Source of the DNA: Hungateiclostridiaceae bacterium UBA1305
GTDB taxonomy: Bacteria > Bacillota > Clostridia > Acetivibrionales > DTU013
Length of the DNA: 64,000 nt
NCBI GenBank assembly: GCA_002307275.1
Contig: DBTX01000068.1
Coordinates: 3,065 to 67,064, forward strand
Direction of reading: 5' to 3'
Positions 43,998-58,250 of this stretch are shown in pieces; the first letter of the stretch is position 1, and each line of letters begins with the position of its first letter. The position numbers and the translations under genes are program-made. Under the pieces are notes generated by a model that saw nothing but the letters and a program-made list of their open reading frames with translations, had not been told where the DNA came from and searched no databases.

Positions 43998-44113
43998 GGG
44001 TTTTTTATTTATAAACAAATTTATTATATTGTTTATTGTTTATATTGTTTTATTATTGTCCGCTTTATTATATTGTAGCCTATTATATTGTAGTGTTATA
44101 ATAATCGTACTCT

Positions 44114-44389
44114 CTATTCTCTAACTCTGCCTTTTGTCTTGTTATTTCCATCATAACCCTGGGCTGATTCATTATAACTTCCTGAAGTAGCGGTAGAATT
44201 ATTTTCTTCCTGGCGCATGAGCTTTTCCAACTCCAATTGGTTCCTGGCTCTCACTTCCTCAGTTCTGACAAGCGCATCCGCACGGATCTGTTCAACCTTA
44301 ATCCTATACTTGGTGATTTGGGATATAACTGTAATAACCAATCCTACTGCAATTGCAAATATAGGTATCAGATTTTCATTAATATACAT
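44114..44389 (-). CDS. Small hypothetical membrane protein (one TM helix plus a charged coiled-coil-like tail)
   Basis: 91-aa ORF with a GAGGTGG RBS. TM segment LIPIFAIAVGLVITVISQI. No family recognised. Confidence 0.5.
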   Translation of the reverse strand: MYINENLIPIFAIAVGLVITVISQITKYRIKVEQIRADALVRTEEVRARNQLELEKLMRQEENNSTATSGSYNESAQGYDGNNKTKGRVRE

Positions 44390-44585
44390 CGTTCCACCTC
44401 GTGCTACTTCATTTGATATAAGATTAACATGTTCTCATCTCGACAGGTTTGTCAAGTTGACCGGAGAGACATGCCGTTCACTATTATATCATCACAAGTA
44501 TAAAACTACCAGTTCAATTGTGATAGTTTAGTTGCGATAAGTCAAATATTAGATACTATTCACAGTCACTTTAAAAGGGTACAAG

Positions 44586-44611
44586 AAAAAGGCTAATGTT
44601 TTAGCCTTTTT
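44586..44611. terminator. Bidirectional-looking intrinsic terminator
   Basis: AAAAAGGCTAA-TGTT-TTAGCCTTTTT. Confidence 0.6.
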
Positions 44612-44640
44612 CTTGAGTGTGTAGAGTTTTATCAAACTTG

Positions 44641-44781
44641 TGGTGGGTGTAGGAGTTCATTTAGGCTTATCGGATTCCCCCTGCAAAGCCGAAGTAGCGC
44701 ATAGAACACATTAATACCATTTCTGTAGCATGTCTCAAGATATGATTTGATGTTCGCATAGAAGAACGCTGTGAATATTAA
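44641..44781 (-). pseudogene. Possible transposase C-terminal remnant (IS66-like)
   Basis: A 46-codon minus-strand frame reads LIFTAFFYANIKSYLETCYRNGINVFYALLRLCRGNPISL. From memory this resembles the IS66-family ...LIETCK.NGINPFEYL... tail. It is bounded by a stop codon upstream. Confidence 0.3.
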
Positions 44782-44829
44782 CTAAGAAGGTTTTAGAAGC
44801 TACGCAACAATTATTTAATGCATACTGCC

Positions 44830-44870
44830 AAAAAAGTGCAATAGACACATTTTCTGATCCATTGCACTTT
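44830..44870 (-). terminator. Intrinsic terminator at the end of the polysaccharide operon
   Basis: On the minus strand, AAAAGTGCAAT-N18-ATTGCACTTTT is followed by a T run. Confidence 0.65.
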
Positions 44871-44921
44871 TACATTTAATAGTTCTTAGCACAGCAGTCT
44901 ATCAATAACAGAGCCTATTGC

Positions 44922-46421
44922 TTACCCAGCTTGCTGTTCCCCTGTCGCAGTTTTGTTATTATCAGGTCCGGATACTGCATTCTTTAATAAGACAAGAACT
45001 ACGGCAGTAAAAGCAGCAAGTATGGTTAATACAATAACCGCCAGTGCAGGTATTTTTACATTCGATATAAAAGAGGATTTGTACTGCGCAGGTACCGGTA
45101 TTTTCACTGCATTATTAAATACTTCCGTTTCAAAATACTCTTCTACCGTCTTATTCGTTATATCAACCCAGTTATTCATCTTTTTAGAAATACTCACTAC
45201 CATAGAATCTACTTCTTTTGAGTATTTTTGCCTGAGGATCTCATCTACAACAGTCCCATTGATTTTTTCAAGTATCTTCGTATAGTACTCAATCTCACGT
45301 GCATCTTCAGAAGCAGTTACACCAGCATCGACCGACCTTCCCAGCAATTGGTCATAATATTCATTCTTCTGGTCAAACTCCGTTGTCCCGGCTGTTTCTC
45401 CATTTGAACCTGGCATCATGATTAGATTTTTATCCTTCTGATACGCTTTTACAGCAGCCTGCGCCATCTGCGCCTCATCCTGTTTCTTACCCATTTCAAG
45501 CTGATATTGCTCAATACGGTATTGATACAGTGACAACAGCCTGTCTTTATCCTTTGTAAGATTATAGCTGTAGATTAAAGAATTCATCCTTGATATATCC
45601 ACATCATTGATGATGTTCAAATACGATACGATATCTCCAAAGGACATTTGAGTCGTTTTGGACCGGAAATCCGGTGAGACTTTCTTTTTATCACTGATAT
45701 AGCTCGTGATAATGTCTATCTGACCCTTCATAATCCTTGCTACCTCCGGGTAGTCATATTCATCGTAATTCAATTCTCCGACTGCTATCGAAAGAACATT
45801 TTTATCTCCATAGGTCTCAATAAAATAATTTTTGTACTCCTTAAGAAGCTCATTAACTACTTTATTGGCTTCATCTCCATCTAAACCAAGCTTCTTTTCA
45901 TTCTTAAAAGTAACCATAAACTGTGTCGGGTGATACTCCAATTCATTCAGTTCTTCAAGCTTTGTGACATCCTTCTCAGCCATCTTGTTTATCGTAAGGA
46001 TTTTATTTATTACATCATCAGGAATTACACCCTGTATATCAATATTCTTTCTAATGTCCTCCGTTGTCAGCTTCCGGCCGTATAAATTCATGGTATCCAT
46101 TACCTTGTCGACAACCACAGGAGCTTTTAATTTATCTATATCAAAGGTCTTCCCATGAGGATCCAAACCCTTGTCAATACCATCAAAGTTAAACGAAATC
46201 AAGGCTTGCACCGAGCCGGATGATTGCTGAATAAATAGCATATAAACTGACACTGCAAGAATAGAAAGGATAAACGTAACACAAGTAAACATTACAATAA
46301 AACGTTTACAACTTAATAAAATATTGAAGATATTCTTAAGCGATATTCTCTCTCCATTATCTTCCTCTTGCTTGATTACCAAATTGATCGTATCTTTTTT
46401 CTCAAGTTCCAATTTCTCCAT
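44922..46421 (-). CDS. Wzz-like polysaccharide chain-length determinant (polysaccharide co-polymerase topology)
   Basis: N-terminal and C-terminal TM helices flank a ~400-aa coiled, charged extracytoplasmic region. No kinase domain. Last gene of the glycan operon. Confidence 0.6.
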   Translation of the reverse strand: MEKLELEKKDTINLVIKQEEDNGERISLKNIFNILLSCKRFIVMFTCVTFILSILAVSVYMLFIQQSSGSVQALISFNFDGIDKGLDPHGKTFDIDKLKAPVVVDKVMDTMNLYGRKLTTEDIRKNIDIQGVIPDDVINKILTINKMAEKDVTKLEELNELEYHPTQFMVTFKNEKKLGLDGDEANKVVNELLKEYKNYFIETYGDKNVLSIAVGELNYDEYDYPEVARIMKGQIDIITSYISDKKKVSPDFRSKTTQMSFGDIVSYLNIINDVDISRMNSLIYSYNLTKDKDRLLSLYQYRIEQYQLEMGKKQDEAQMAQAAVKAYQKDKNLIMMPGSNGETAGTTEFDQKNEYYDQLLGRSVDAGVTASEDAREIEYYTKILEKINGTVVDEILRQKYSKEVDSMVVSISKKMNNWVDITNKTVEEYFETEVFNNAVKIPVPAQYKSSFISNVKIPALAVIVLTILAAFTAVVLVLLKNAVSGPDNNKTATGEQQAG

Positions 46422-46607
46422 TATAAGAATCCTCCCTTTATTAAGCTTTGTAAAATCATAGTATAATAATACACTTTAACCTTTTGGATCTTTTCATTTT
46501 CTTGTTAAATGCTCTGATCACATTGCTTATAAATTATCCTTATTACGACTATTTATATTTTTCTACAGATTAGGATTTTCATCTATTTAATATATCACTA
46601 TTCTAAC

Positions 46608-46892
46608 TTATCTTTGCCGTTTTGTCTTCTCTATAGTATTTTCTATAAACCGCTCCTGTTTCACCTTGATACGCTTCATAATCCCCTGAATGGAAGAAAA
46701 CCTGAAATTGTCCGAATTCATCTTCATGGCAAGGCAATAAATGTCAACTATCTGCTTATTGCGATTCGCTACGTAGGGAGTACTGTTTGAGAAATTGTCA
46801 CCAAGGACAAACTCGTAGGCAGAATTAAGTAATTCCACCGTGATATTTGAGCCAATATAGCCTGTGTAACCAGTTAACAAAACCGAATTCAT
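46608..46892 (-). pseudogene. Chimeric gene ghost: N-terminus of an NAD-dependent epimerase (GalE-like) fused to a C-terminal piece of UDP-glucose 6-dehydrogenase
   Basis: VLLTGYTGYIGSNITVELLNSAYEFVLGDNFSNS is a Rossmann GxxGxxG epimerase start. IYCLAMKMNSDNFRFSSIQGIMKRIKVK matches the Ugd motif ...MKSGSDNFR.SSIQGIMKRIKAKG. Confidence 0.6.
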
Positions 46893-47130
46893 GTTATCTC
46901 TTTAACCCTTTGAGATTTCTGTAAATAAGTATAATTCTTGTTTTCAAAATATCGAGGCAAACATTGCAGTCTGTTATTATGAAAATTCGCAAGCAAATAA
47001 TCGAAACACAAATAACAGTTAGTATCGAATATAAAATCCAGGCACCGTAGCCATCCAATGTCGACATAAAATTGCGTATTAAATCAATATCGGATGTTAT
47101 CATACAATCAGAATTATTGCGTTTTAAATG

Positions 47131-47646
47131 TCATCTCTCAACTTCGGTAATACCATAGTGCATAAGAACTCTGCTCCAGAGCTCATACTGATTCAAAAAA
47201 TGCTCCATGATATCCCTAACGGCACCGTCACCACCTTTTTTCGATGATACAAAGCTAGATATTAAACGAATTTCTTCCGCAGCATTGGAAGGGCAACCCC
47301 TTATTCCACACATTTTCATGGCTACGTAATCGTTTAGGTCATCGCCAATAAAGAGAACTTCGCACAAGGGAATATCTTTATTGTTGCAGATTTCCTTTAG
47401 CGCAAAAACCTTATCCACAGTATTACCAAAAACTTCACACCCAAGTTCGGCACCTCGTCTGGAAACCGCTTCAGATCTGCGACCGGTAAGGAATATTACA
47501 GGCAAGCCTATTACCTGCATAGCCTTGATTGCCAGACCGTCCTTGATATCGAAAGACTTTAATTCCGTTTCACCGGAGCCATATGTAATTTTTCCATCAG
47601 TCAATGTCCCGTCGACATCGAGTACAATCATACTGAGTTTAACCAT
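47131..47646 (-). CDS. HAD-IIIA phosphatase of the KdsC family (ulosonate-phosphate phosphatase type)
   Basis: LDVDGTLTDGKI motif I, LTGR motif, and GDDLNDYVAM motif IV. The length (171 aa) is typical of KdsC and Kdn-9-P/Neu5Ac-9-P phosphatases. Confidence 0.8.
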   Translation of the reverse strand: MVKLSMIVLDVDGTLTDGKITYGSGETELKSFDIKDGLAIKAMQVIGLPVIFLTGRRSEAVSRRGAELGCEVFGNTVDKVFALKEICNNKDIPLCEVLFIGDDLNDYVAMKMCGIRGCPSNAAEEIRLISSFVSSKKGGDGAVRDIMEHFLNQYELWSRVLMHYGITEVER

Positions 47647-47684
47647 AATTCTAACCCTCTGTTTTATAGACCAGTCGCCACCAT

Positions 47685-49265
47685 CTACTGATACAACGAT
47701 TTAGTCAAAAAGCTCACAGTAACTTTTTCAGCTACTCTGGCAATCAAGTCCTTATAGAATTCATTTCTCTGCTCTGCTTGTTCCTCGGTTACCGGTCGCC
47801 GTAAAGTAGTATTATAATAGTTCTCATTAATATTAATAGAGAATCCATCAAAACCAGCAAGGATAATCTCTCTTGCACCAAGTTCTTCAAGTAGCTTTAA
47901 AGCAATAACACTCGATGAATCATAGGTTTTTTCATCAACAATTATCCACTTCTGGTAGTCAACTACATAAACCAAATCGGTACAGGTCTGTGTCAGCCGC
48001 GATGGCACAATAATGGCTTTTCCTTGTTCTTTTGCTTCGGCAAATATTTCTGCACGTGTGGTTAAAACATAATCCGTATTAAATTCAAAGTTGTTCAAAC
48101 TGATAGAGAATATATCTACTTCCGACAAGAGCGCGTTAATTTTTCTCGCGGCATCCTTTATGCTCTTGCCAGGTGCCACCAAAAGAACCTTTTTACCCTC
48201 AACGCATTCTTTAAGCTTCTTTATAACCTCGGCGTCATCAAAAGTCTTGCTGGCATTGTATTTCAAATATAGGTTCTCCGCGTATTGTCTGTCGAAAGAA
48301 TTTTTCTTTTCTTCGTCAATCATACCTAGCAGTTCGGCTACCTGATCAATCGGTAGCATATGTTTATTGTAGAAATGCCCCGCGTAGCTTGGCGTACAAT
48401 GATTGACTGAAGACAAATAGTATTCAGCAGCATAACCCCAATACAATTCTTTATGAATCGTGTTTATTACCTGATCAATTAACTCAAGAAGCGGGGTGAT
48501 TTTGTAATGCTTCCCGTAATAAAGGTTTAAATGCTCCAACAGTAATTCCGTGTTCAAATTACCCGCGCCCTTGCCCATGCCCATGACGGAAGCATCAAGT
48601 ATTAAATTCCTGATGGTCGGAAAGTTGAGTAACTCCATAGCATTAGAATAGGAAAGCTGCAAATTATTATGAGAATGGAATCCTAGCGAGATACCAGGGT
48701 TCAAATTGTTGTCTACCAGATGCATGAGACGGGTAACGTCCGTACCACGCATTTCACCAAAACTGTCAACAATATAAAAGCCTGCTGCATCAGATAGTGA
48801 TTCATTAACAGCCTTTATAAGCTCAAGCAACTCCATATCGGAATACCGCATCGTAAGCATCGGCTGAACATAGAACTGGTACCCCTTGTCAATTACCTTC
48901 CGTCCGAGGGTTATAACATCCTTCCAATTCTTCTTGTGGAAGGCAAGCCGGATACCGTCAATACCATTTTCCTGCCTGTCCTGAAACTTGCCGACATCAA
49001 ATGTACCATAATCCATCATCGCTACATAAGTTTTGCCGAGCTGCTTATGCTTTAAGAAATTTGTCGATATTACCTGCTCATTGGAGAATTGCGTACGCCC
49101 GGAATCAGAGCCGCTTTTCTCATTAATGTATCCGAGTTCGATAAAGTCAACGCCGGATCGTTCCAACGATTGTAAGATTTTATCCATATAGTCCTGACCG
49201 AAATTAAAGTCGTTGACGCATCCACCATCACGAAGAGTTACGTCCAATACTTTTATGGAATTCAT
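47685..49265 (-). CDS. Fusion protein: N-terminal HMGL-like (DRE-TIM metallolyase/aldolase) domain plus a C-terminal DUF115/MptE-like domain
   Basis: N-terminus VLDVTLRDGG...HSHNNLQL (metal ligands) as in DmpG/HMGL-like enzymes. The C-terminal part has KKVLLVAPGKSI...DYVLTT...EIILAGFDGFS, resembling the DUF115 pattern GNGPSL...D...G.D. Confidence 0.65.
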   Translation of the reverse strand: MNSIKVLDVTLRDGGCVNDFNFGQDYMDKILQSLERSGVDFIELGYINEKSGSDSGRTQFSNEQVISTNFLKHKQLGKTYVAMMDYGTFDVGKFQDRQENGIDGIRLAFHKKNWKDVITLGRKVIDKGYQFYVQPMLTMRYSDMELLELIKAVNESLSDAAGFYIVDSFGEMRGTDVTRLMHLVDNNLNPGISLGFHSHNNLQLSYSNAMELLNFPTIRNLILDASVMGMGKGAGNLNTELLLEHLNLYYGKHYKITPLLELIDQVINTIHKELYWGYAAEYYLSSVNHCTPSYAGHFYNKHMLPIDQVAELLGMIDEEKKNSFDRQYAENLYLKYNASKTFDDAEVIKKLKECVEGKKVLLVAPGKSIKDAARKINALLSEVDIFSISLNNFEFNTDYVLTTRAEIFAEAKEQGKAIIVPSRLTQTCTDLVYVVDYQKWIIVDEKTYDSSSVIALKLLEELGAREIILAGFDGFSININENYYNTTLRRPVTEEQAEQRNEFYKDLIARVAEKVTVSFLTKSLYQ

Positions 49266-49303
49266 GAATGATTGCCTCCCTTGAAATTTGTTCCTAACTT
49301 TTT

Positions 49304-49948
49304 TCAGATCTCAAAATTCAGAAGAGCCTCCGCCAAACGGAAATCTTCGGGATTGTTAATATCGACAGCTTCTTTGAAAGTGACCTCCTTTACGAATGGG
49401 TTTAGCCCGATACGACGGTGGTACTTGCTATATGATTCTTTTGTAAATACATAAACTCCGGAAGTTTCGCGATAAATAGGTTTTAGGTCCTGACTGCGCG
49501 GCACATTGGTAGCATCAAAGTTGAGCGGTTCCCCATCCTTCCATAGATAGTCTTGAATCTTTGTAGCGCAGAATGCAGAGTCATATTCGCCCGTTTGAAC
49601 TGCATAAATGCACTGTTTCATTGTCTCTACTGTAATGAAGGGCGCTGTAGCATGCGCATAGACATAAATATCAGAATCAATTTCTTTCATAAAACAGTCG
49701 AATATCTGCGTGAAATTCGATGTGGGCAAATCAAGATATTCGGGCCGCTTGATAAACCTCACACCTGCTGATAAAGATTCACATACGGCTTCATTACTGC
49801 AATAAACATTTACGCTATCCAGCATTTCGAGCAATAGGAGGTTGTCCAGTTCATATTGCAAAAGCGGCTTCTTACCTAATAGTTTTGTATTTTTGCCCGG
49901 TAAGCGTTCATTGTTCAGTTTTATAGGCATTATTGCAACGATTCTCAT
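49304..49948 (-). CDS. Acylneuraminate cytidylyltransferase family protein (NeuA/KdsB/SpsF-like CMP-sugar synthetase)
   Basis: IMPIKLNNERLPGKN N-terminal nucleotide-binding motif, PRSQDL...YRETSG, and C-terminal VDINNPEDFRLAE. Confidence 0.8.
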   Translation of the reverse strand: MRIVAIMPIKLNNERLPGKNTKLLGKKPLLQYELDNLLLLEMLDSVNVYCSNEAVCESLSAGVRFIKRPEYLDLPTSNFTQIFDCFMKEIDSDIYVYAHATAPFITVETMKQCIYAVQTGEYDSAFCATKIQDYLWKDGEPLNFDATNVPRSQDLKPIYRETSGVYVFTKESYSKYHRRIGLNPFVKEVTFKEAVDINNPEDFRLAEALLNFEI

Positions 49949-49985
49949 AATAAGTACTCCTTTTGAATTATACTTCCGAGTTTTT

Positions 49986-51446
49986 CTACTTGAAGATAAA
50001 GCCCAACATAAATTTCAACTTGCCAAACGCAAAAAGCGATAGTATAAATAATACCCCAGAGATAAGAAGTTTTATAGAGATACTGAGGTATTTATTCCAC
50101 TCTGGCAAAAAACTAACACTCAAAACAGAAACAGTGAAGTACACAGCAAACAATAGAAAATCCGTAGCTAGTCGTCGGGCAAAGTCAGAGAATTTAACAC
50201 CAAAGCATTTTTTAATCAACCAGTAAAAAGTAACATAAGTATTCGATGTGTACGCAATAGCAATAGTGACCGATAGAGTATAAATACTTCCGGCAATTAG
50301 TCCGATTACGGTCAATAAAACAGTAATCACTGTATTAATAATTCCAGTTTGTAGTAATAACTTTGTATCTCCCAAACTCTGAAATACTGCAACTGTTGTG
50401 GCATAGATCATTTGCATACAAATAGATAGGCTTAATATCTTAAAAGCAAGAATTGAGTTCTCCCATTGCTCGCCAAAGGCAATAAGAATCAATTCATCGG
50501 ATGAAAGATAACAAAACGTGGTAACAAAAACACTAACCAATAATGTGAATCTTACTAATCTTACATATTTTTCAAAAATATACTTCTTGTCGTTCTGGAA
50601 GTCTGAAAGTATAGGATGCAATACGGACGCAATTATTACAGAGAAATTGTTAAGCGGAAACATGGTTAGTTTATATGCTTTGTCATAATAACCAAGCGCG
50701 TTTGCTCCAAAAACCTTGCCTGTCAAAAGATTATCCGTGTTCCGCGCGAAATAATTAATTATTTTAAAGACAAATAAACTAGATGAATATCCATAAATCT
50801 TTCTTATTGCTCCTTTATCAACCTTTACCTTAAATCTCGGTTTCGTATTCAGATAATTCCAAATGCAATTAATAAAAGCACTCACTATCGACAGCAAAAC
50901 AAGAGAATAATACGAAAGTCCACGATAAGCAGCTATTATTGCCACCAGACTTCCGATTAAAGTTGAAACAAGAAGCCGAACACCTATTAAAAGGAATTTT
51001 TTATCTCTTCTTAAAATGGCATCTGGTACAACAGTCCAAACGTTAAACAAAATAGAAATCGAAAGTGCAAAACAAATAGGTATATATATTGAATTACCAT
51101 AGAAAAAAGATATAGGAAAAGCAAGCATGACAAAAATTACGCATATTACAAACCCCATATAAATAGAAACCGAAAAAATGGAGTCTACATCATCCTTTGT
51201 TAAATCCTTTACTTGTATTACTGCTGCGCCTATGCCCAAATCAGATATTATCGTAAAAAATGTAGTGAAAACATTCACAACAGCAACGATACCATATTCG
51301 TCTGGTGTTAGCAATCGTGCTAATATCATGTTTAGTATAAATTGCAAAACAACCGTAGCGTATTTGAATACTGTTGTTGTAATTACCGCTCTTTTCAACG
51401 ATGTAGGCTGTTGCTTTTTTTCCGGATTCAATACGAGCTTTCTCAT
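49986..51446 (-). CDS. wzx: Wzx-type polysaccharide flippase (MOP superfamily)
   Basis: 486 aa with ~12-14 TM helices. Typical N-terminus (...TTVFKYATVVLQFILNMILARLLTPDEYG). Confidence 0.85.
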   Translation of the reverse strand: MRKLVLNPEKKQQPTSLKRAVITTTVFKYATVVLQFILNMILARLLTPDEYGIVAVVNVFTTFFTIISDLGIGAAVIQVKDLTKDDVDSIFSVSIYMGFVICVIFVMLAFPISFFYGNSIYIPICFALSISILFNVWTVVPDAILRRDKKFLLIGVRLLVSTLIGSLVAIIAAYRGLSYYSLVLLSIVSAFINCIWNYLNTKPRFKVKVDKGAIRKIYGYSSSLFVFKIINYFARNTDNLLTGKVFGANALGYYDKAYKLTMFPLNNFSVIIASVLHPILSDFQNDKKYIFEKYVRLVRFTLLVSVFVTTFCYLSSDELILIAFGEQWENSILAFKILSLSICMQMIYATTVAVFQSLGDTKLLLQTGIINTVITVLLTVIGLIAGSIYTLSVTIAIAYTSNTYVTFYWLIKKCFGVKFSDFARRLATDFLLFAVYFTVSVLSVSFLPEWNKYLSISIKLLISGVLFILSLFAFGKLKFMLGFIFK

Positions 51447-51616
51447 GTAACTTCATCCTGAAATTTTTTAGAGTTACACATATCATCACATAGGTTAATA
51501 GCGGTCATCTCATCAAGTGCATATTTCAACAGCGGTTTTCCTCCTAGATGTCAATTGTTTTTTTGGAATAAATGTTCATTATTTAATTTGATGGGCATTA
51601 TCGAGGGGATTTTCAT
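51443..51616 (-). pseudogene. Ghost of a second cytidylyltransferase gene (N-terminal ~57 codons, in-frame stop)
   Basis: Minus strand reads MKIPSIMPIKLNNEHLFQKNN*HLGGKPLLKYALDEMTAIN..., parallel to MRIVAIMPIKLNNERLPGKNTKLLGKKPLLQYELDNL of the 49304-49948 gene. It ends in an ATGA overlap with wzx. Confidence 0.7.
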
Positions 51617-51619
51617 TGA

Positions 51620-52183
51620 TCAGACCTCATTCAAAATATACTCATCAGTAGCATGATCGTTTGATAGTATCCTACCTGGATTGCCCAAAACAATCGAATT
51701 ATCAGGCACGTCAAAATTCACCATCCCCCCCCCCGCAATTAGTACATTATTCCCAATTTTAATGTTTCCAACCACTATTGAGTTAGGACCTATCCAAACA
51801 TTTGATCCTATTTGAGGCGCGCCTTTTCTAAACCCTCTATTTTCTTGGCCAATAGTCACGCCTTTTGTTATATTAACATTATTGCCGATTATTGTATTCT
51901 TGTTAATTGTGATAGCTCCATAATGTGTGATTTTAAAACCTTTTCCAATCTCTACTTGCCAAGGTATCTCGATTCCCGAATAAACAGAATATCTGTATAG
52001 TTTATACCTAAAAAACATAAATAAGGGTTTATACCTTCTAGCCCAATTTGTAGCACGATGTATAACCATGAATTTGAATCCAGGACATAAAAAAAAGTGT
52101 TTTAGAAAATACCGTATGGATTTGTTCCTTTCGTATCGAAACAGGTCTGCTTTTATCAAAGAAACGAGTAGTTTAAAATTCAT
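51620..52183 (-). CDS. Hexapeptide-repeat O-acetyltransferase (serine acetyltransferase/WcaB-like)
   Basis: Left-handed beta-helix repeats IGNNVNITKGVTIG, IGSNVWIGPNSIVVGNIKIGNNVLIAGGGMV. N-terminal helical region as in the CysE/WcaB family. Confidence 0.85.
   Translation of the reverse strand: MNFKLLVSLIKADLFRYERNKSIRYFLKHFFLCPGFKFMVIHRATNWARRYKPLFMFFRYKLYRYSVYSGIEIPWQVEIGKGFKITHYGAITINKNTIIGNNVNITKGVTIGQENRGFRKGAPQIGSNVWIGPNSIVVGNIKIGNNVLIAGGGMVNFDVPDNSIVLGNPGRILSNDHATDEYILNEV
51725..51734 (-). repeat. Homopolymeric G10 tract (C10 on plus) inside the O-acetyltransferase coding sequence
   Basis: Minus strand reads CTA ATT GCG GGG GGG GGG ATG GTG, encoding LIAGGGMV. The reading frame is currently intact. 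Confidence 0.95.
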
Positions 52184-52201
52184 TGCTGTTACCCCACTTA
52201 T

Positions 52202-53032
52202 TTATTCGTATAAGTCATATGGAAAAGTTGCGAACAGGTTCTGCTGAAGCGTTTCCAAATTTGGAACTTGGATAGGAACTCTGCTAAACGCTTCCTCCTC
52301 AGTACCACAGAATTCTATATTCAATCTTCTTGTGCTCATGAAATAATCATAGTATTTAAATAGCAACTGTTTTTTTGGTAACAGTGGGATTACTGGTATG
52401 CCATATGCTTCTGCAATAATTATTCCGTGTAAGGAAGACGAAATGATTATCTCGCACTTGTTAATTTCATCAATGACGCATAGGGGGTTTTCGTTTCTTG
52501 GATTGATTACTCTCGCTCCCATCTTGACTTTCCAATCATTTTCCGCGTAATGATTAATGATCCCGAATTTATTTTCCTTGCTAACATTAGGTTTGTAAAT
52601 TTTTGGCATTAATATAGCGGGATCTCCATACAATTCGGGTACTTCATGTCCGGCTGATTTCAAAAATTCCTTTGTTAATGGACCGCGAATCATTCTTATA
52701 TCAAGCTTTCTGTATATTTTCATCAATGACGTAAGATGCCCAAGTATTCCGCTCCCCCAAACCGTTGCGTTCTGGTATCCTAAATCCAGAATGCTTCCAC
52801 ATGCATAAAGATGTTTTGTCGTTATCGTTTTTTCTATTCCAGTTATTCCTTTTTGATACAGCAAATGCTTCACTATTATTGGTGATAATAAGTCTCCAAA
52901 ATTTTTGTTCCTATATGCAGTTTTTGAGGCATAATGCAGATTAACTCTATTCTGGATGGTATGCCTGCTTGGATCGTCAAGAATAATTCTGTTTCTTAGT
53001 AGGTAACTTGTCGCAATTCTTGATATATTCAT
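52202..53032 (-). CDS. Polysaccharide pyruvyl transferase (ExoV/GumL/CsaB family)
   Basis: NFGDLLSP, GSIL, VWGSG, RGPLT, GDPAILMP and SSSLHGIIIAEAYGIPV match the PS_pyruv_trans motif series. Confidence 0.8.
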   Translation of the reverse strand: MNISRIATSYLLRNRIILDDPSRHTIQNRVNLHYASKTAYRNKNFGDLLSPIIVKHLLYQKGITGIEKTITTKHLYACGSILDLGYQNATVWGSGILGHLTSLMKIYRKLDIRMIRGPLTKEFLKSAGHEVPELYGDPAILMPKIYKPNVSKENKFGIINHYAENDWKVKMGARVINPRNENPLCVIDEINKCEIIISSSLHGIIIAEAYGIPVIPLLPKKQLLFKYYDYFMSTRRLNIEFCGTEEEAFSRVPIQVPNLETLQQNLFATFPYDLYE

Positions 53033-54322
53033 TTACTTTACCAATCTCTTTCTAATTATTGATAAAGACATTCCCACACATATTGATAAAATAATTCCTT
53101 CATTCATTATGTAAATTGGGAAACTAACCATACCATGAATGAGGAATGTAATACACACCATCAGTGAAAAAAGTGACATCGGCAGCAGTTCCCTGTAGTA
53201 TTTGCAAACTTTAACTGCCTTGAAACATATTATTAAACAACAAATGAAAAAAGAAAAATATAACACTGATCCAACCAGCCCTGTTTCGGCCAATAATTGC
53301 AAATACATGTTATGCGCTTCGTTAACACTACCTTGCCCATATAAACTATTTAGGTTGGAGAAACTACCTAATCCGTTTCCAAATATTGGCTTTTGTTTGA
53401 ATAGTTGGATAGCATATTGCCAAAGATCTAACCGACCATTTAAAGTCGAATAATCATTTAGTGAAGTAAACCTCTGAATTGTAATATTTGCCTGTGGGAC
53501 AAAGATCAATATAGCAATGGTAATAATTGAGAAGATCAAAAAAAATCGAAGAATACTCTTTCTGATTTTTCTATCACTTAGAAAAAACAACATAATAAAA
53601 ACAACACAAACAATAATTATCACTTGACTTCGCTGACCAGTGCATAGCATTGCAGCAAAACATATCGTGCAATACACCATTTGTTTAAGCTTAATTTTTC
53701 CTTGTGATAGTATACCTGATATAAAATAACACATCGCAATATTCATTGAGGCTGCAGCTAAGCCTCTTGCACCATTCAATCCAGAATACTGGCCAGCACT
53801 GTATTCGTGCAGCAACCTACCGACATTTGTAAAGTAAAAATCAAAAATAGTAATGAAATTGTTTTTCAGAATGCTTGATACAATGATAAATGCTGCGTAA
53901 AATAGAGCAACTGGTTTAATTATGTTGTATGTACTTCTGTACAAACTTAATCGAACAGGCAATAACGTTATTATTCCGTACAATGAAAACTGGAGAATAG
54001 TATCAAGGATATTTGCATTGCTTACGTTAATAGCTGTCATTTGTATCGCTATAAAAGCAATATAAATGATTAAAGAACCATAATATATACGCGGGTTACT
54101 TTTCAATTCCATATTAGCAACGCAGCACAAAATGTATATAATTATGTAAACAAATGCACAATTGGAGTATATTGTAAATCCCTTAGACCCCCCTAGGCAG
54201 AAAAATACCAAGAGTAAAATCGCTAAATTAACAATAGTACTCTTAATACTGAGTTTCTCATTAAAATGCTGTCTCCAAAATTGACTAAGATAAGTCTCAT
54301 TTATTATTACATTAATCTCCAT
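53033..54322 (-). CDS. wzy: Wzy-type O-antigen/polysaccharide polymerase (O-antigen ligase-like family)
   Basis: ~10-12 TM helices, with a large loop carrying NEAHNMYLQLLAETGLVG (Wzy_C-type motif). Confidence 0.8.
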   Translation of the reverse strand: MEINVIINETYLSQFWRQHFNEKLSIKSTIVNLAILLLVFFCLGGSKGFTIYSNCAFVYIIIYILCCVANMELKSNPRIYYGSLIIYIAFIAIQMTAINVSNANILDTILQFSLYGIITLLPVRLSLYRSTYNIIKPVALFYAAFIIVSSILKNNFITIFDFYFTNVGRLLHEYSAGQYSGLNGARGLAAASMNIAMCYFISGILSQGKIKLKQMVYCTICFAAMLCTGQRSQVIIIVCVVFIMLFFLSDRKIRKSILRFFLIFSIITIAILIFVPQANITIQRFTSLNDYSTLNGRLDLWQYAIQLFKQKPIFGNGLGSFSNLNSLYGQGSVNEAHNMYLQLLAETGLVGSVLYFSFFICCLIICFKAVKVCKYYRELLPMSLFSLMVCITFLIHGMVSFPIYIMNEGIILSICVGMSLSIIRKRLVK

Positions 54323-54468
54323 ATTTGTTCCTTTGTAATAGATCTATGTCCACCCTTAGAATCGTATCCAGCAAAGCACCACACTCTACATTATATACAT
54401 TCACACCTACTTCATCGCAAACACACCTGTTTACGCTCATCGATAAAGGGGCTCTTATTGCCGATGCT

Positions 54469-55326
54469 TTATTCATTATTCTCTACAACCTCATCTAAAC
54501 ACTGTCTCTTAAAGGCTTCCAATTTTCCACCTCTAGTGCAATTAATAATTCGTATACTATGGGTTTCGGCAAACCTCTCAGCTGTTCTATATGCAGTATC
54601 TGCAATATTCTTGTTTTGAATGTTGTAAGTTGTTGTTTTTACATCCCCAAAGTAATCTCTTATTTCTCGATTAATAATTAATTTGCCTTTCTCATCTATG
54701 CTCTGCGAATAGTTGTGATCAATTCCCAATAGATAAATCTCTGTGAATCCCATGTATACAGCTATTTGTATTGCGTTATATACTACCGTTTCTCCAGCTT
54801 CGGTTGCAGTACATATATCTGAACTGAATCTGATAAACGACCTAGGTTTGTATTTCTTAAGGTAAAATGGTTGACGATTATATACATAGAAAATTTTGTT
54901 TGATTTTTTTATACCACAATGTTGGCCGAATAATGAAACAAAACAAGTTGAGTCGGTAGATATGCTCTCAACTTTGTTGCTTATATCCGATAAAGTCTTT
55001 TCTTCTACACACATCCAAAAATTTGGGCGCCAATCCGTTTTATCGTAAAGCTGAAAGATTCGATTACAGCCAAATGTGACCTCGTTCTTTATCATTTCCA
55101 AATCTTCAGTCCGAAGGCTGGGACCGTTGCCGATTATAAAACAACGTTTGCCCTTATAAGCGTCTTTAAAACTTGAGAGTTCTTTGGCGCTTTCACTATG
55201 AGCAAATTTCAGATCTGACATCAATATTTTAAGAGCAAAGTACGGATATACTATGGTTCTGATGATCAAGTTATTATTCAAAAGATTTCTGGTTAATATT
55301 TTGATATCTGAAAAGTTATATCTCAA
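54469..55326 (-). CDS. DUF115 (MptE/Maf-like) protein, putative ulosonic-acid transferase
   Basis: GKRCFIIGNGPSL...GCNRIF...DWRPNFWMCVE...IYLLGIDHNY follows the DUF115/MAF_flag10 pattern. Confidence 0.65.
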   Translation of the reverse strand: MRYNFSDIKILTRNLLNNNLIIRTIVYPYFALKILMSDLKFAHSESAKELSSFKDAYKGKRCFIIGNGPSLRTEDLEMIKNEVTFGCNRIFQLYDKTDWRPNFWMCVEEKTLSDISNKVESISTDSTCFVSLFGQHCGIKKSNKIFYVYNRQPFYLKKYKPRSFIRFSSDICTATEAGETVVYNAIQIAVYMGFTEIYLLGIDHNYSQSIDEKGKLIINREIRDYFGDVKTTTYNIQNKNIADTAYRTAERFAETHSIRIINCTRGGKLEAFKRQCLDEVVENNE

Positions 55327-56323
55327 TTCTACACCTCTTTAACCTGCTCTTCTGAAGAAGCGGCCTTACTATTCCATGTAAAATGCCAATCAATCTAATA
55401 AAAACGAAGCGTAGTATTATTTTACTCGCTAACTGGATTAATTTTCTGCTCTTGGTCATGCTGGTAGGACGTAGCGGTGTATTACCCCAAGCGGTCTTAC
55501 CTCTGTATTCGAGGTAGGTTTGTGTCATCTTATGATCGCAGTTTTGCATCCAGGGACGTCCATTTACCATAAAAAATGTATCGAAATGAACAATACAAGG
55601 GTTATGCAAAGAGGAATTCACCTCGGCTTCGGTATAAAGAAACTGCGGCCGCCTGGCTGAAGAAATTTCACGGTAACTACACATGTAGAATAAAGAAATT
55701 ATGTTAAATCGCAATGGAAAATAGAAAATATCATCTTGCAAAATTTTACAAATGATATCGTTGTCCGGGAATTCGAGCAAACCGTTATATTCCTTTATCG
55801 CTTTAACCAGAATCTGTTGCCAGCCGTTTTCCCGGTATTTATTCAAATCAATAACCAACATTCCACTATTAATATAGTAACTTGTATCCTTGATGCCCAA
55901 GTTTCGATTATACCTAATATTTCTACAGTCCCTAACGGCTCCCAGAGTTTTGCCTTGAAAATTTTGTTTCCATAGCGACATCATTGAATCAAGAATTAAT
56001 GTATCGCAGTCGATATATATCACTCGCTCAATTTCTGTAGGTAACAACGTTCCCAGCAATATCCGGGAGAACATACTCTCGGAATATCTTTTTATATCAA
56101 CTGTTTCTCCTATGATATTAGAAATGTCAGGCATGTTAATAAAATAAATATCACATTGATAATTCGAAGTTGAAGATTCTATTCTTGTTTTGTTATCGTC
56201 GGAAATATTCTGAGAAATAATGTACACATTAACTAATTGACCCTTATTGTTCTCAAGTAGCGATACAAGCGATACTGTTAATACTTCTGCAAAATTATTG
56301 TCTGATGCGTATACGATGTTCAT
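55316..56323 (-). CDS. Glycosyltransferase family 8
   Basis: MNIVYASDNNFA...VIYIDCDTLILD (DxD)...YINSGMLVIDL, typical of GT8 retaining transferases. Confidence 0.85.
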   Translation of the reverse strand: MNIVYASDNNFAEVLTVSLVSLLENNKGQLVNVYIISQNISDDNKTRIESSTSNYQCDIYFINMPDISNIIGETVDIKRYSESMFSRILLGTLLPTEIERVIYIDCDTLILDSMMSLWKQNFQGKTLGAVRDCRNIRYNRNLGIKDTSYYINSGMLVIDLNKYRENGWQQILVKAIKEYNGLLEFPDNDIICKILQDDIFYFPLRFNIISLFYMCSYREISSARRPQFLYTEAEVNSSLHNPCIVHFDTFFMVNGRPWMQNCDHKMTQTYLEYRGKTAWGNTPLRPTSMTKSRKLIQLASKIILRFVFIRLIGILHGIVRPLLQKSRLKRCRIEI

Positions 56324-56780
56324 TTATTGGCACTCCCCGATTTATACTTCTTACAGAACAACTCAATGTCCGTAAATTCCGAGACTCTATCTTTTATTAT
56401 ATCTTCAGTCCAATTCCACCATTGTATTTCCTGCAATAACTCGATGATATCTTCATTAAATCTTATTCTTGCTAGCTCCTTAACGTATACACAGGCTTTA
56501 ATTGTGTCTTTTCGCCCGCGCAAAAGAAGTATCGCTTGTTTATTCCTTTTCAATTAATCCATGTTCTTATGCCCTGGAATCTATTTACCGAACTATTGAT
56601 TTGCATTCAATTAAACGTGCATATCTTTTTATATCTTCAATTTGTAAATAAAAATTCATATCCGATATAGAATTTCCGTACATTAATGTAATATCAAATA
56701 TCTCTTTTTCAGGCCAGGAATTAAATCCATAATATTCCATCTATCACCGTTTCCCATAGTTTCAGCGATCAACAATAGTT
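56320..56780 (-). pseudogene. Decayed hexapeptide xenobiotic-type (Vat/CatB-like) acetyltransferase
   Basis: The 77-aa ORF (56320-56553) ends in RFNEDIIELLQEIQWWNWTEDII, matching the conserved Vat/CatB C-terminus (RF....I..LL.I.WWNW). Upstream frames give broken pieces (GNGDRWN; ARLIECKSIV) separated by stops and frameshifts. Confidence 0.5.
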
Positions 56781-56828: not shown

Positions 56829-58250
56829 CTAATAAGCATTCCCGTTCACAAACCCCTTAAACACCGTCATAAACATAATCTTCACATCCATAAAAATGCT
56901 CCAATTACGTATGTAGTAGTTATCACACTTGATCCTTTCCTCTATAGATGAGTCACCACGCCAGCCGTTCACTTGCGCCCAACCTGTGATGCCGCTTTTT
57001 ATGTAATGCCTCATCATGTACTGGGGTACTTCTTCTTTAAACTTTCCGACCCAGTAAGGCCTTTCAGGTCTCGGGCCGACTATACTCATATTTCCGAACA
57101 ATACATTGAATAGCTGGGGTAATTCATCAAGACTTGTCTTTCTGATGAACGATCCAAATACAGTCTTTCTGGGATCATTTGCTGTAGTCCACTGCACCTT
57201 CTCTTCATTCTTGTCCTGGATTCTCATGGATCTGAATTTATACATCATGAAAGGCTTATTACTGGCTCCAACTCTCTCTTGTTTATAAAGTATCGGACCT
57301 TTTGATGTTAACTTTATTCCTATTGCCACCAACAACATGATTGGCATGAATATTAGAATAAATATTACTGAAACGAGTATATCGAATGATCTTTTTATCA
57401 ATATGTTGTGTATATGATCCAGTGGAACTTCCCGCACGTGTATCACCGGCATACCTTCTATTTCTTCGACTGTCACACAAATGTCTTCAGAATAAGCCGG
57501 TAAAATATTTGTTCGTATACCTTCTTTATCACAGATATCAATGATATTTTTTATCAAACCATATTTTTCAATTGATAAAGCGATTACTACTTCATGGACG
57601 TCATTAGTATCAATGATCGTTTCAAGATCCTTTATCTGTCCAAGTATCGTTAATGCGTTTTTATCCGCTGTATTGCTTACATCATCCAGAAATCCAATAA
57701 CATTGCTTCCCCATAGTTTGTATTTTTTAATTCGTTCAAAAAATAGCTTTCCAATATATCCGGATCCAATAATTAAAATATTTTTTGAATCCAGATATCT
57801 TTTATTTGATTTTGAAAGCAAAAGCATTAATAATTTTATAAGTATTCTAACTGCAATAAGTGATACTGTTGCAACAGAAATAAATATAATAAGAAAAAGC
57901 CTGCTTAAATTTGTGTTATGTAAGAAATAAAGTATGCCGCTCAAAATTGCAAAGCCCATAGAGTTCGCAAAAACGGGTTTTAACAGTGTGGAAAATATAG
58001 ATTCTTTTTTCTTAATGAATGTGTATGATCTCGTTATGTAAAAACTTATTGGCCAAATTGCTGCTATTACAGCCAGAATCCATAAATATTCATTAAAATT
58101 AGTCATAAGCTTATATTTCAGGCTATAAAAAGTATTACGCAAGGCATAGGCTGCAAAATAAGAATCAATTACCATTGTCAAATCCACAATCAGTACAATT
58201 TTTTGAACAAACTTAATTTTACTGGTCAACATATGTTTAGCTCCTAACAA
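56829..58250 (-). CDS. Undecaprenyl-phosphate sugar phosphotransferase (WbaP/EpsL-type initiating enzyme)
   Basis: N-terminal TM bundle, a CoA-binding-like region, and the bacterial sugar transferase domain KRSFDILVS...YKFRSM...DELPQLFNVLFGNMSIVGPRPERP. Confidence 0.92.
   Translation of the reverse strand: MLGAKHMLTSKIKFVQKIVLIVDLTMVIDSYFAAYALRNTFYSLKYKLMTNFNEYLWILAVIAAIWPISFYITRSYTFIKKKESIFSTLLKPVFANSMGFAILSGILYFLHNTNLSRLFLIIFISVATVSLIAVRILIKLLMLLLSKSNKRYLDSKNILIIGSGYIGKLFFERIKKYKLWGSNVIGFLDDVSNTADKNALTILGQIKDLETIIDTNDVHEVVIALSIEKYGLIKNIIDICDKEGIRTNILPAYSEDICVTVEEIEGMPVIHVREVPLDHIHNILIKRSFDILVSVIFILIFMPIMLLVAIGIKLTSKGPILYKQERVGASNKPFMMYKFRSMRIQDKNEEKVQWTTANDPRKTVFGSFIRKTSLDELPQLFNVLFGNMSIVGPRPERPYWVGKFKEEVPQYMMRHYIKSGITGWAQVNGWRGDSSIEERIKCDNYYIRNWSIFMDVKIMFMTVFKGFVNGNAY

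Follow-up and report, generated by a model that had tools for sequence, protein, structure and literature searches.

How could a CMP-activated keto-sugar acid be made from a locus in which a KdsC-like phosphatase gene and a CTP_transf_3 cytidylyltransferase gene flank a 526-aa aldolase fusion, with no KdsA or NeuB synthase in sight? The question was raised by a preliminary description of the 64,000-nucleotide stretch of DNA analyzed here (the window), which proposed a pathway of aldol condensation onto a sugar phosphate, dephosphorylation, CMP activation and transfer by DUF115 enzymes. This interpretation was found to be partly supported. The open reading frames on which it was built (47131-47646, 47685-49265, 49304-49948 and 54469-55326) all exist on the minus strand, and the motifs VLDVTLRDGG and HSHNN were located at residues 6-15 and 197-201 of the fusion. 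The phosphatase, fusion and cytidylyltransferase genes are co-directional with 37-38 bp between neighbours. The features are:

47131..47646, minus strand: KdsC/YrbI-family HAD-IIIA phosphatase, 171 aa (TIGR01670)
47685-49265, minus strand: 526-aa aldolase fusion, DRE-TIM/HMGL-like plus C-terminal domain (PF00682)
48366..49265, minus strand: N-terminal DRE-TIM (HMGL-like) domain with helical extension, residues 1-300 of the 526-aa protein
47688..48260, minus strand: C-terminal MptE/DUF115-fold domain (remote relative), residues 336-526 of the 526-aa protein (hhalign, Foldseek)
49304..49948, minus strand: CTP_transf_3 (KdsB/NeuA/PseF-family) cytidylyltransferase, 214 aa (PF02348)
49986..51446, minus strand: Wzx-type flippase (Polysacc_synt_3, E 1.7e-76)
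51620..52183, minus strand: hexapeptide-repeat O-acetyltransferase (Hexapep; EpsC-/WcaB-like)
52202..53032, minus strand: polysaccharide pyruvyl transferase (PF04230, E 4.6e-17)
53033..54322, minus strand: Wzy-type polymerase (Wzy_C, E 1.1e-22)
54469..55326, minus strand: stand-alone DUF115/MptE-like protein, 285 aa (PF01973)
55316..56323, minus strand: GT8 glycosyltransferase (Glyco_transf_8, E 1.3e-34)
56829..58250, minus strand: initiating undecaprenyl-phosphate glucose phosphotransferase, WcaJ type (TIGR03023)

A Wzx/Wzy Locus without KdsA or NeuB

The low-GC locus is of the Wzx/Wzy type, as had been described. It encodes an initiating phosphoglycosyl transferase of the WcaJ type (TIGR03023, 471.5 bits against a cut-off of 410.75), a flippase (Polysacc_synt_3) and a polymerase (Wzy_C), together with a GT8 glycosyltransferase whose gene overlaps that of the 285-aa DUF115 protein by 11 bp. 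The claim that KdsA and NeuB are missing was confirmed: neither NeuB (PF03102) nor KdsA (DAHP_synth_1, PF00793) domains were found in the 16 locus proteins and 10 further window open reading frames of plausible size. Dehydratase, aminotransferase and epimerase genes had also been reported absent; none is intact in the locus, but a 94-aa remnant is present. The O-acetyltransferase gene is missing from the otherwise syntenic locus of Desulfosporosinus orientis, and other loci, too, repeatedly have pyruvyl transferase genes close to the cassette. Full-text literature searches, short of an exhaustive review, returned no paper describing the cassette.

The N-Terminal Domain of the Fusion Protein

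The N-terminal half of the fusion is a DRE-TIM/HMGL-like domain and neither NeuB nor KdsA, in agreement with the preliminary description (HMGL-like PF00682, 55.9 bits against a gathering score of 29). Judged by sequence, its nearest characterised relatives are the DmpG-type class II pyruvate aldolases. The best NCBIfam models were those of DmpG-type 4-hydroxy-2-oxovalerate (HOA) aldolases, which matched the aldolase domain with E-values of 1e-24 to 1e-26 but all remained below cut-off (TIGR03217, 85.8 versus 286 bits; NF006049, 91 versus 229 bits). In the PDB the domain matched the putative aldolase 3DXI (E 2.8e-27) and DmpG-type aldolases (E 3e-13 to 2.7e-7).

Residues R12, D13, H197, H199, N200, N201, D224, N236 and E240 were conserved among 118 divergent members of the family, down to 32% identity, the R12-D13 pair and the H197-S-H199 metal site being 98-99% conserved. 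The catalytic histidine of DmpG, which follows RDG(S/M) (DmpG His21, BphI His20), corresponds in position to Cys16; this residue is Cys in all members of the window's subfamily (A-type) and Tyr in all members of the sister subfamily (B-type). A set of basic residues (R57, K88, R140, R173, H302, R/K404 and R489) was conserved in A-type and lacking in B-type proteins. As the KdsC-type phosphatase is also an A-type-only feature, a phosphorylated acceptor is supported. We propose that the domain is a pyruvate- or oxaloacetate-dependent ulosonate-phosphate synthase.

The Phosphatase and the Cytidylyltransferase

Both flanking enzymes belong to the classes previously given. The 171-aa phosphatase has a Hydrolase_3 match and exceeds the cut-off of the KdsC/YrbI model TIGR01670 (116.5 versus 106.95 bits). 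It was below the equivalog cut-offs for Kdo-8-P phosphatase (E. coli KdsC) and Kdn-9-P phosphatase (NF007019 and NF058599; 100 versus 208 and 113 versus 180 bits), and its top PDB matches were KdsC (4UM5, E 2e-27) and the Kdn-9-P phosphatase BT1713 (3E81, E 3.7e-27). The 214-aa cytidylyltransferase matched CTP_transf_3 with 61 bits (gathering score 22.6), missed the equivalog cut-offs for PseF (58.5 versus 205.7 bits) and KdsB-type enzymes (25-27 versus 193-255 bits), and had the CMP-Kdn synthetase PpNeuA as best PDB match (9T4Z, E 2.4e-10). We propose that they act as a ulosonate-omega-phosphate phosphatase and a CMP-ulosonate synthetase, respectively. Since the equivalog models for HOA aldolase, KdsC, Kdn-9-P phosphatase, PseF and KdsB were all below cut-off, no specific substrate is transferable by homology.

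Two Proteins Related to DUF115

The preliminary description had likened both the 285-aa protein and the C-terminal half of the fusion to DUF115/Maf modules and had assigned transfer to them. For the 285-aa protein the likeness stood. It matched MptE-like/DUF115 PF01973 with 60.6 bits (gathering score 34.6) and, weakly, the model of the WaaZ Kdo-III transferase. The AF2 model (pLDDT 93.6) had a Maf glycosyltransferase as top Foldseek match (5MU5, E 2e-8), with MptE at E 2e-4. The family profile aligned with Campylobacter jejuni Cst-II (GT42) over 185 positions, GNGPSL and G-x-D motifs included, at a borderline E of 0.007-0.012. Compared to the Maf transferases, which attach nonulosonic acids to flagellin and share PF01973 with it, the 285-aa protein is far shorter; PF01973 was the only domain found by Pfam, Maf_flag10_N being absent, and the setting is Wzx/Wzy and not flagellar. 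Unlike Maf and Cst-II it would act in a lipid-linked repeat-unit pathway. Maf_flag10_N appears only in other loci, e.g., in a 602-aa protein of locus L086. To our knowledge, the characterised glycosyltransferases of the DUF115/Maf-like and polysialyltransferase-like families use CMP-ulosonic acid donors. Companion transferases from such families fit a CMP-keto-acid sugar, and we propose that the 285-aa protein is a CMP-ulosonate-dependent glycosyltransferase.

For the fused C-terminal domain the likeness was limited to the fold. The C-terminal half had no Pfam match and thus did not reach the gathering score of PF01973. By hhalign it was related to the 285-aa DUF115 family (80.6% probability, E 1.3e-5) in an alignment that pairs the nucleotide-loop and G-x-D-G motifs of the two, and a SteA model weakly matched residues 333-471. 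The domain can therefore be described as a remote MptE/DUF115-fold relative, with the same fold, one known from nucleotide-binding enzymes, but outside the family at the Pfam threshold. Foldseek matches of its AF2 model (pLDDT 94.5) were led by the archaeal 6-hydroxymethyl-7,8-dihydropterin pyrophosphokinase (HPPK) MptE (8SBU, E 1.2e-6) and SteA (9HMZ, E 8.6e-5), followed by the sialyltransferase ST8SiaIII (E 3.4e-4), while Maf was absent from the top 50. On the predicted structure, the domain thus looks closer to MptE and SteA than to Maf. It has the N-terminal glycine-rich loop motif in common with MptE and SteA, but similarity in sequence is marginal (E 0.03-0.12), and it differs from them in being joined to an aldolase and in lacking a pterin or folate context. 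Residues G366, N391, S422, D449, G471, D473, G474 and N501 were conserved, as was the domain itself across the fusion family.

Conservation of the Gene Set

The aldolase/C-domain fusion family comprises more than 6,200 clusters at 90% identity, and the four-gene module is conserved and widespread in gut and environmental bacteria. Linkage was counted in 82 non-redundant loci, 51 of them A-type. A cytidylyltransferase gene was present in 73 of the 82, mostly adjoining the fusion gene. A CMP-sugar-type transferase (DUF115, Maf or polysialyltransferase-like, the latter being GT38-like A-2_8-polyST proteins) was encoded in 66 loci, and 50 of the 82 had a homolog of the 285-aa protein no more than 10 kb from the fusion gene. 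In 16 of the 82 no separate transferase candidate lay that close, but several of these loci are truncated. The co-occurrence that the preliminary description had called for is wide, except for the KdsC phosphatase: 33 of the 51 A-type loci have it, and none of the B-type. B-type cassettes often carry a KDG-kinase-like PfkB gene right after the fusion, for an enzyme whose specific substrate is a 2-keto-3-deoxy sugar acid, and we count this in favour of a keto-sugar-acid donor.

Compact four-gene islands were found in L049 and L053, with no other glycan genes nearby, and in L036 in Bacteroidales. Natural fusions join the aldolase and C-domain to CTP_transf_3, CTP_transf_3 to the aldolase (aldolase and CTP_transf_3 are fused in P0142, P0193 and P0241) and the aldolase to HAD, as in the HMGL-HAD phosphatase fusion P0213. 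Recurrence of the gene set in dozens of unrelated genomes places the arrangement far beyond chance. In aldolase-only relatives IspD or LicD is fused to the aldolase, so that some members may feed CDP- or phosphodiester chemistry and not CMP-glycosides. On the points of the preliminary description that could be followed by computation (the class of the N-terminal domain, the fold of the C-terminal domain and the co-occurrence of the genes) nothing was found to contradict it.

A Proposed Pathway

The identity of the domains, the conservation of their catalytic residues, the linkage of the genes and their fusion in some organisms were observed directly. From these we infer the substrates and every chemical step of the following pathway, which we hold to be probable though by no means certain: the phosphatase, the aldolase fusion, the cytidylyltransferase and the 285-aa DUF115 protein would form a self-contained module that makes a CMP-3-deoxy-2-ulosonic acid and adds it to a Wzx/Wzy repeat unit. 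The DRE-TIM domain would bind pyruvate (or oxaloacetate, with decarboxylation) on a divalent metal held by D13, H197 and H199, with R12 stabilising the enolate. Attack of the enolate on a phosphorylated aldose drawn from central metabolism, at its aldehyde group, would give a 2-keto-3-deoxy-aldonate omega-phosphate, this aldol step replacing the PEP-dependent KdsA/NeuB reaction. Removal of the terminal phosphate by the KdsC-family phosphatase would pull the reversible aldol reaction forward, and the CTP_transf_3 enzyme would form the CMP-beta-glycoside of the ulosonic acid. The Maf/GT42-like 285-aa protein would then transfer the sugar acid to a lipid-linked Glc-(Gal/Glc) unit made by the WcaJ-type transferase and GT8, and the repeat unit would be pyruvylated, O-acetylated, flipped and polymerised. 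As a rough ranking of the sugar, we place a KDG/KDGal-type hexulosonic acid derived from glyceraldehyde-3-P before a Kdn-type C9 acid from mannose-6-P, and the latter before a C8 or C7 acid.

Counting against the pathway are the replacement of the DmpG/BphI catalytic His by Cys16 (Tyr in B-type) and the lack of a phosphatase gene in 18 of 51 A-type and all B-type loci. Neither the strongly conserved fused C-domain nor the KDG-kinase-like partner of B-type has a place in the simple scheme.

Alternative Explanations

The product could be an already known sugar, with the cassette replacing KdsA/NeuB non-orthologously and ending in CMP-Kdo or CMP-Kdn; the synthase step alone would then be new, and not the sugar. 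This is a special case of the pathway above and no true alternative to it, and we give it a minor but appreciable chance. The phosphatase matches KdsC and Kdn-9-P phosphatase equally well, among solved cytidylyltransferases a CMP-Kdn synthetase comes closest, the source annotations read KDO-8-P phosphatase and CMP-NeuAc synthetase, and mannose-6-P is a ubiquitous possible acceptor. However, every equivalog model was below cut-off, the B-type partner is a kinase of KDG type (C6), and an arabinose-5-P isomerase (KdsD/KpsF) was not noted among the annotated recurrent neighbour families. A more distant reading starts from the DRE-TIM enzymes, which include Claisen-type synthases and lyases too; those in view here are isopropylmalate, citramalate and homocitrate synthases and HMG-CoA lyase. 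The HMGL-like domain would then make a non-sugar hydroxy-acid decoration that is nucleotide-activated and attached. Weaker NCBIfam and PDB matches to homocitrate and isopropylmalate synthases agree with this, as do the annotation of the D. orientis ortholog as isopropylmalate/homocitrate/citramalate synthase and the IspD and LicD fusions. We nevertheless regard it as improbable: the E-values of DmpG-type aldolase models and structures are better by 10-15 orders of magnitude, the position of the RDGEQ motif typical of Claisen enzymes reads RDGGC/Y in the fusion family, and the KdsC-type phosphatase, NeuA/KdsB-type cytidylyltransferase and sialyltransferase-like partners point to a keto-sugar acid. 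A reading of the 526-aa protein as a standard catabolic 4-hydroxy-2-oxovalerate aldolase, which its source annotation and best NCBIfam matches would suggest and which would place it in a polysaccharide locus by chance, is hardly credible. Its 86-91 bits compare with cut-offs of 229-286, another residue takes the place of the catalytic His, the family has kept its extra C-domain, and no DmpF-type acylating acetaldehyde dehydrogenase is found among the locus genes. In 73 of 82 genomes the gene is embedded in a glycan operon beside that of a cytidylyltransferase, and this genomic context effectively refutes the catabolic role.

The fused C-domain might itself be a CMP-sugar glycosyltransferase, giving the locus two ulosonic-acid transferases. 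Its remote DUF115 homology with aligned motifs, its structural likeness to ST8SiaIII and the 16 loci without a separate candidate are consistent with this, yet we consider it unlikely. The domain is only ~190 aa, its top structural matches are MptE and SteA where the 285-aa protein matches Maf first, and a dedicated transferase gene is nearly always separate (66 of 82 loci), so that transfer is probably not the task of the fused domain and this part of the earlier proposal needs correction. Fusion to the first pathway enzyme, and sometimes also to the cytidylyltransferase, is more in keeping with a part in synthesis than with one in transfer. Our best guess is that the domain binds a nucleotide and assists synthesis, either by supplying or trapping substrate or by sensing the end product.

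Comparison with Known Pathways

The CMP-Kdo pathway (KdsD, KdsA, KdsC, KdsB) shares with the cassette a KdsC/YrbI phosphatase and a CTP_transf_3 enzyme, and the same logic of joining a C3 unit to an aldose phosphate, dephosphorylation and CMP activation. Its condensing enzyme is the PEP-dependent KdsA (DAHP_synth_1), whereas that of the cassette is an HMGL-like DRE-TIM metallo-aldolase with an extra MptE-fold domain; the cassette lacks an arabinose-5-P isomerase and is found in a Gram-positive host in a Wzx/Wzy context. The Kdn pathway of Bacteroides thetaiotaomicron (Kdn-9-P synthase BT1714, Kdn-9-P phosphatase BT1713, CMP-Kdn synthetase) and the animal NANS/NANP/CMAS route follow the same order, with a synthase acting on a sugar 6-phosphate, a phosphatase and a cytidylyltransferase. 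BT1713 and CMP-Kdn synthetase are the close solved relatives noted above; animal NANP is not known to be a KdsC-type HAD phosphatase. The Kdn and NANS synthases are NeuB-type and PEP-dependent, while the cassette has no NeuB domain and would use a pyruvate-type aldolase in place of the usual KdsA/NeuB synthases.

With the class II pyruvate aldolases DmpG and BphI the fusion shares the fold and the Arg-Asp and His-x-His metal/enolate residues. It differs in its distance from the equivalog cut-off, the Cys in place of the catalytic His, the lack of a DmpF partner, the proposed biosynthetic direction, the glycan context and the C-terminal MptE-fold domain. NanA, Kdo aldolase and Eda/KDPG aldolase catalyse the chemistry proposed here, the reversible joining of pyruvate and an aldose (phosphate) into a 2-keto-3-deoxy acid, but the characterised enzymes are class I (Schiff-base) aldolases of unrelated sequence families, catabolic and uncoupled from CMP activation.

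Genes of the Polysaccharide Locus

A co-directional block of genes on the minus strand extends from 44.9 to 58.3 kb and adjoins the S10 ribosomal-protein operon. Its G+C content is 34-38%, compared to 43-47% in the flanks.

Genes of the locus as assigned by Pfam and NCBIfam profile scans (position, strand, product).
56829-58250, -, WcaJ-type undecaprenyl-phosphate glucose phosphotransferase
55316-56323, -, GT8 glycosyltransferase
54469-55326, -, 285-aa MptE-like/DUF115 protein
53033-54322, -, Wzy polymerase
52202-53032, -, pyruvyl transferase
51620-52183, -, hexapeptide acetyltransferase
49986-51446, -, Wzx flippase
49304-49948, -, CTP_transf_3 cytidylyltransferase
47685-49265, -, 526-aa HMGL-like protein (aldolase fusion)
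47131-47646, -, KdsC/YrbI-family HAD phosphatase

The genes for Wzx, the cytidylyltransferase, the 526-aa protein and the phosphatase are separated by just 37-38 bp. No NeuB or KdsA domain was found by profile scans in the locus or in the other suitably sized ORFs of the window. The preliminary description of these genes, including the absence of NeuB/KdsA, was thus right throughout.

The 499-aa protein at the end of the locus (44922-46421, minus strand) is hydrophobic in stretches close to each terminus, matches no Pfam family and may be a divergent chain-length regulator. A 94-aa ORF (46608-46892, minus strand) is a gene remnant: over residues 4-50 it matches the N-terminal end of NAD-dependent epimerases, and the whole ORF groups with UDP-glucose dehydrogenases of other loci upon BLAST clustering. 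Desulfosporosinus orientis carries an ISL3 transposase fragment, a 330-aa ORF and an epimerase at this position, and the 330-aa ORF shares a BLAST cluster with UDP-glucose dehydrogenases.

A gene for a 170-aa NusG paralog (59032-59544, minus strand; PF02357, E 2.5e-13) precedes the polysaccharide operon and is co-oriented with it; the paralog may be an operon-specific antiterminator of the LoaP/UpxY type. The 705-aa protein encoded just upstream of the locus (59646-61763, minus strand) has three S-layer-homology (SLH) domains and contains 11 consecutive Thr and then 9 Asn. SLH domains bind pyruvylated cell-wall polymers, and since the locus encodes a pyruvyl transferase its product could be the SLH anchor.

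The Aldolase Domain

A DRE-TIM/HMGL-like barrel makes up residues 1 to ~290 of the 526-aa protein. Among solved structures 3DXI is nearest (E 2.8e-27); it covers the N-terminal domain of a "putative aldolase" from Bacteroides vulgatus, an uncharacterised protein. The next PDB matches are 4-hydroxy-2-oxovalerate aldolases of the DmpG type (E 3e-13 to 2.7e-7), while homocitrate and isopropylmalate synthases match at only E ~1e-3. R12, D13, H197 and H199, the residues for metal binding and enolate stabilisation, were 98-99% conserved in 118 homologs with identities down to 32%.

In public annotations the cassette proteins appear as "4-hydroxy 2-oxovalerate aldolase", "CMP-N-acetylneuraminic acid synthetase", "KDO 8-P phosphatase" or "hypothetical". 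The catabolic 4-hydroxy-2-oxovalerate (HOA) aldolase annotation of the 526-aa protein was rejected, because the protein scores far under the NCBIfam equivalog cut-offs for HOA aldolases and because Cys16 aligns with the catalytic His that follows RDG in the DmpG-type enzymes. Judged from its sequence, it belongs to the DRE-TIM/HMGL-like superfamily and is related to the class II pyruvate aldolases, but it is not an HOA aldolase.

The C-Terminal Domain and the 285-aa Protein

The C-terminal domain of the fusion (residues 336-526) gave no Pfam match, and it was not significantly similar to the 285-aa protein by pairwise BLASTP. A relationship between the two was visible only by profile-profile and structure comparison. 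A C-domain profile built from 32 divergent sequences matched the DUF115 family profile of the 285-aa protein with a probability of 80.6% (E 1.3e-5), with the glycine-rich loop (GKxVLLxAPGKS/GxRCFIIGNGPSL) and the motifs LAGFDG/LLGVDH in register. The AlphaFold model of the C-domain (pLDDT 94.5, pTM 0.90) had the archaeal pyrophosphokinase MptE (E 1.2e-6) and SteA (E 8.6e-5) as its best PDB matches and also matched the human sialyltransferase ST8SiaIII (E 3.4e-4); Maf was outside the top 50. The top match of the 285-aa model (pLDDT 93.6) was a Maf glycosyltransferase (E 2e-8), and its family profile aligns with Cst-II of C. jejuni (E 0.007-0.012). According to these models the MptE/DUF115 fold is common to both, with the 285-aa protein looking like a transferase and the fused C-domain like a minimal nucleotide-binding core. 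Conserved residues of the C-domain are G366, N391, S422, D449, G471-x-D473-G474 and N501, and some aldolase-only relatives lack the domain.

The C-domain had previously been likened to DUF115/Maf modules and proposed as a DUF115-type transferase. The likeness holds for remote DUF115 homology and for the fold, with MptE and SteA closer than Maf. A role as the pathway transferase was judged unlikely, since MptE and SteA are matched first and a separate transferase is encoded in 66 of 82 loci with fusion homologs. We favour a nucleotide-dependent accessory to synthesis or an end-product sensor, although this is the weakest part of our account.

Distribution and Gene Linkage

Homologs of the fusion make up more than 6,213 clusters at 90% identity, and the best 120 of these were all full-length. 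There were 659 clusters at 50% identity with E < 1e-30, and in most of them the two domains stayed together, at identities as low as 32%. Scanning one genome per species gave at least 582 confirmed matches, and the matches listed include Clostridia, Bacilli, Erysipelotrichaceae, Bacteroidales and Treponema. The nearest relative is from D. orientis DSM 765 (85% identity), where the locus is almost syntenic. Other carriers that can be cultured include Lacrimispora algidixylanolytica, Gottfriedia acidiceleris, Sporolactobacillus spathodeae and Clostridium aestuarii. The low-G+C island (44000-60000) is inserted beside the S10 operon; its base composition and the occurrence of the cassette in different phyla suggest horizontal acquisition.

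For gene linkage, ORFs of 87 fetched loci and the window locus were called, clustered and searched with HMMs. Partner genes within 10 kb of the fusion were counted on 82 non-redundant loci, which fall into two subfamilies, A-type (n = 51, including the window) and B-type (n = 31, including 3DXI). A CTP_transf_3 gene, mostly adjoining the fusion, was found in 73/82 loci (A-type 46/51, B-type 27/31), and a DUF115-, Maf- or polysialyltransferase-like transferase in 66/82 (40/51 and 26/31); the polysialyltransferase-like proteins match PF07388. A KdsC-type phosphatase was present in 33/82 loci, all of them A-type (33/51, compared to 0/31 for B-type). The cassette genes proposed in the preliminary description do therefore co-occur in other genomes.

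Two loci (L049 and L053) carry the four genes as an island that is free of other glycan genes in its surroundings, and in a Bacteroidales locus (L036) the genes run HAD, cytidylyltransferase, fusion, DUF115. The linkage is reinforced by natural fusions of aldolase, C-domain and CTP_transf_3 (proteins P0193 and P0241), of CTP_transf_3 and aldolase (P0142) and of aldolase and HAD (P0213).

When 1,466 ORFs from 87 loci were clustered, no precursor-supplying isomerase, NeuC-like epimerase or dehydratase was conserved among the recurrent neighbour clusters that were annotated. These were generic glycan genes only: GT2, GT4, Wzx, ABC transporter, acetyltransferases, DegT, UDP-glucose dehydrogenase and LicD.

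A-Type and B-Type Fusions

Residues that distinguish the two subfamilies (position, A-type, B-type).
16, Cys, Tyr
291, Thr, His
404, Arg/Lys, Asn
450, Ser, Asn

The basic residues R57, K88, R140, R173, H302 and R489 are conserved in A-type and missing from B-type proteins, which would fit a phosphorylated acceptor for the A-type enzymes. In nine B-type loci (L054, L058, L061, L064, L070, L071, L077, L083 and L087; e.g., L058:11581-12603) a PfkB kinase gene lies directly downstream of the fusion. The kinase is KDG-kinase-like: it scores 217 bits with a KDG/KDGal kinase model and 500 bits with the kinase part of the KDPG-aldolase/kinase fusion model. This is independent evidence that the pathway intermediates of the family are 2-keto-3-deoxy sugar acids, and the B-type kinase points to a C6 acid.

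A KDG-kinase-like gene in a phosphatase-free CMP-sugar cassette is outside any scheme that we constructed. Four B-type loci (L055, L066, L069 and L072) have two or three tandem CTP_transf_3 paralogs upstream of a single aldolase fusion.

A Proposed Pathway

From family membership and gene linkage the following steps can be proposed. A pyruvate (or oxaloacetate) enolate on the barrel metal would add to an aldose phosphate, and the KdsC-type phosphatase would render the condensation irreversible. The CTP_transf_3 enzyme would form the CMP-glycoside, after which the 285-aa Maf/GT42-like enzyme would put the acid sugar on the Glc-initiated repeat unit, to be pyruvylated, O-acetylated, flipped and polymerised. 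This logic is the same as in the CMP-Kdo pathway and the Kdn-Neu5Ac 9-phosphate pathways of Bacteroides and animals, whereas the condensing enzyme is from an unrelated superfamily and has an extra domain.

In general terms, it is somewhat probable on the sequence evidence that the genes are a CMP-ulosonic acid cassette. Its sugar could not be named from equivalog models, as every one scores under cut-off. The phosphatase matches Kdo-8-P and Kdn-9-P enzymes equally, and the nearest solved relative of the cytidylyltransferase is a CMP-Kdn synthetase at only E 2.4e-10.

To our knowledge, all described de novo routes to ulosonic acids use a PEP-dependent NeuB- or KdsA-type synthase. Full-text literature searches found no published description of the cassette; the SugarBase preprint on CMP-sugars concerns a different system. 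The cassette may represent a third, unrecognised route to nucleotide-activated ulosonic acids, in which a DRE-TIM metallo-aldolase with a fused MptE-fold domain would replace NeuB/KdsA in several hundred species or more, belonging to Clostridia, Bacilli, Bacteroidales and spirochaetes. The product would be an uncatalogued CMP-sugar, e.g., CMP-3-deoxy-hex-2-ulosonic acid, and the fused domain would have a catalytic or sensing function new to its fold. Taken jointly, we give these proposals slightly under an even chance.

Recognition of bacterial surfaces, evasion of immunity and susceptibility to phages depend strongly on ulosonic acids such as Kdo and sialic, pseudaminic and legionaminic acid, and genome surveys for these sugars search for NeuB/KdsA-type genes. 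If the cassette has the function that its parts suggest, such surveys overlook a large group of acidic sugars on the surface of gut Firmicutes and Bacteroidetes. It would also imply a thermodynamically different, pyruvate-based biosynthetic logic with the pull provided by the phosphatase, and a new role for the MptE/DUF115 fold. 3-Deoxy-hexulosonic acids are reported in a few polysaccharides; we know of no biosynthetic genes for them, and the cassette would supply candidates. Its enzymes could serve in chemo-enzymatic synthesis of CMP-keto-sugars.

Variant Loci

Other natural fusions join IspD and aldolase (P0195), aldolase and LicD (P0251), and an HpcH/HpaI aldolase with aldolase and C-domain (P0171). 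Decorations that are CDP-linked or phosphodiester-linked may be supplied by some branches of the family, and some may perform two successive aldol steps. In three Bacillus/Gottfriedia loci (L073, L082 and L085) the cassette is followed by a HAD_2 phosphatase, a metallophosphoesterase and an LCP (LytR-CpsA-Psr) ligase, which suggests that the polymer is attached to peptidoglycan, like a teichulosonic-acid-like wall polymer. Distant aldolase-only relatives (25-29% identity) were found in giant-virus metagenome bins of IMG/VR (L090, L091 and L092), and a full-length B-type fusion was found once (n = 1; L088), on a 32.7-kb viral contig.
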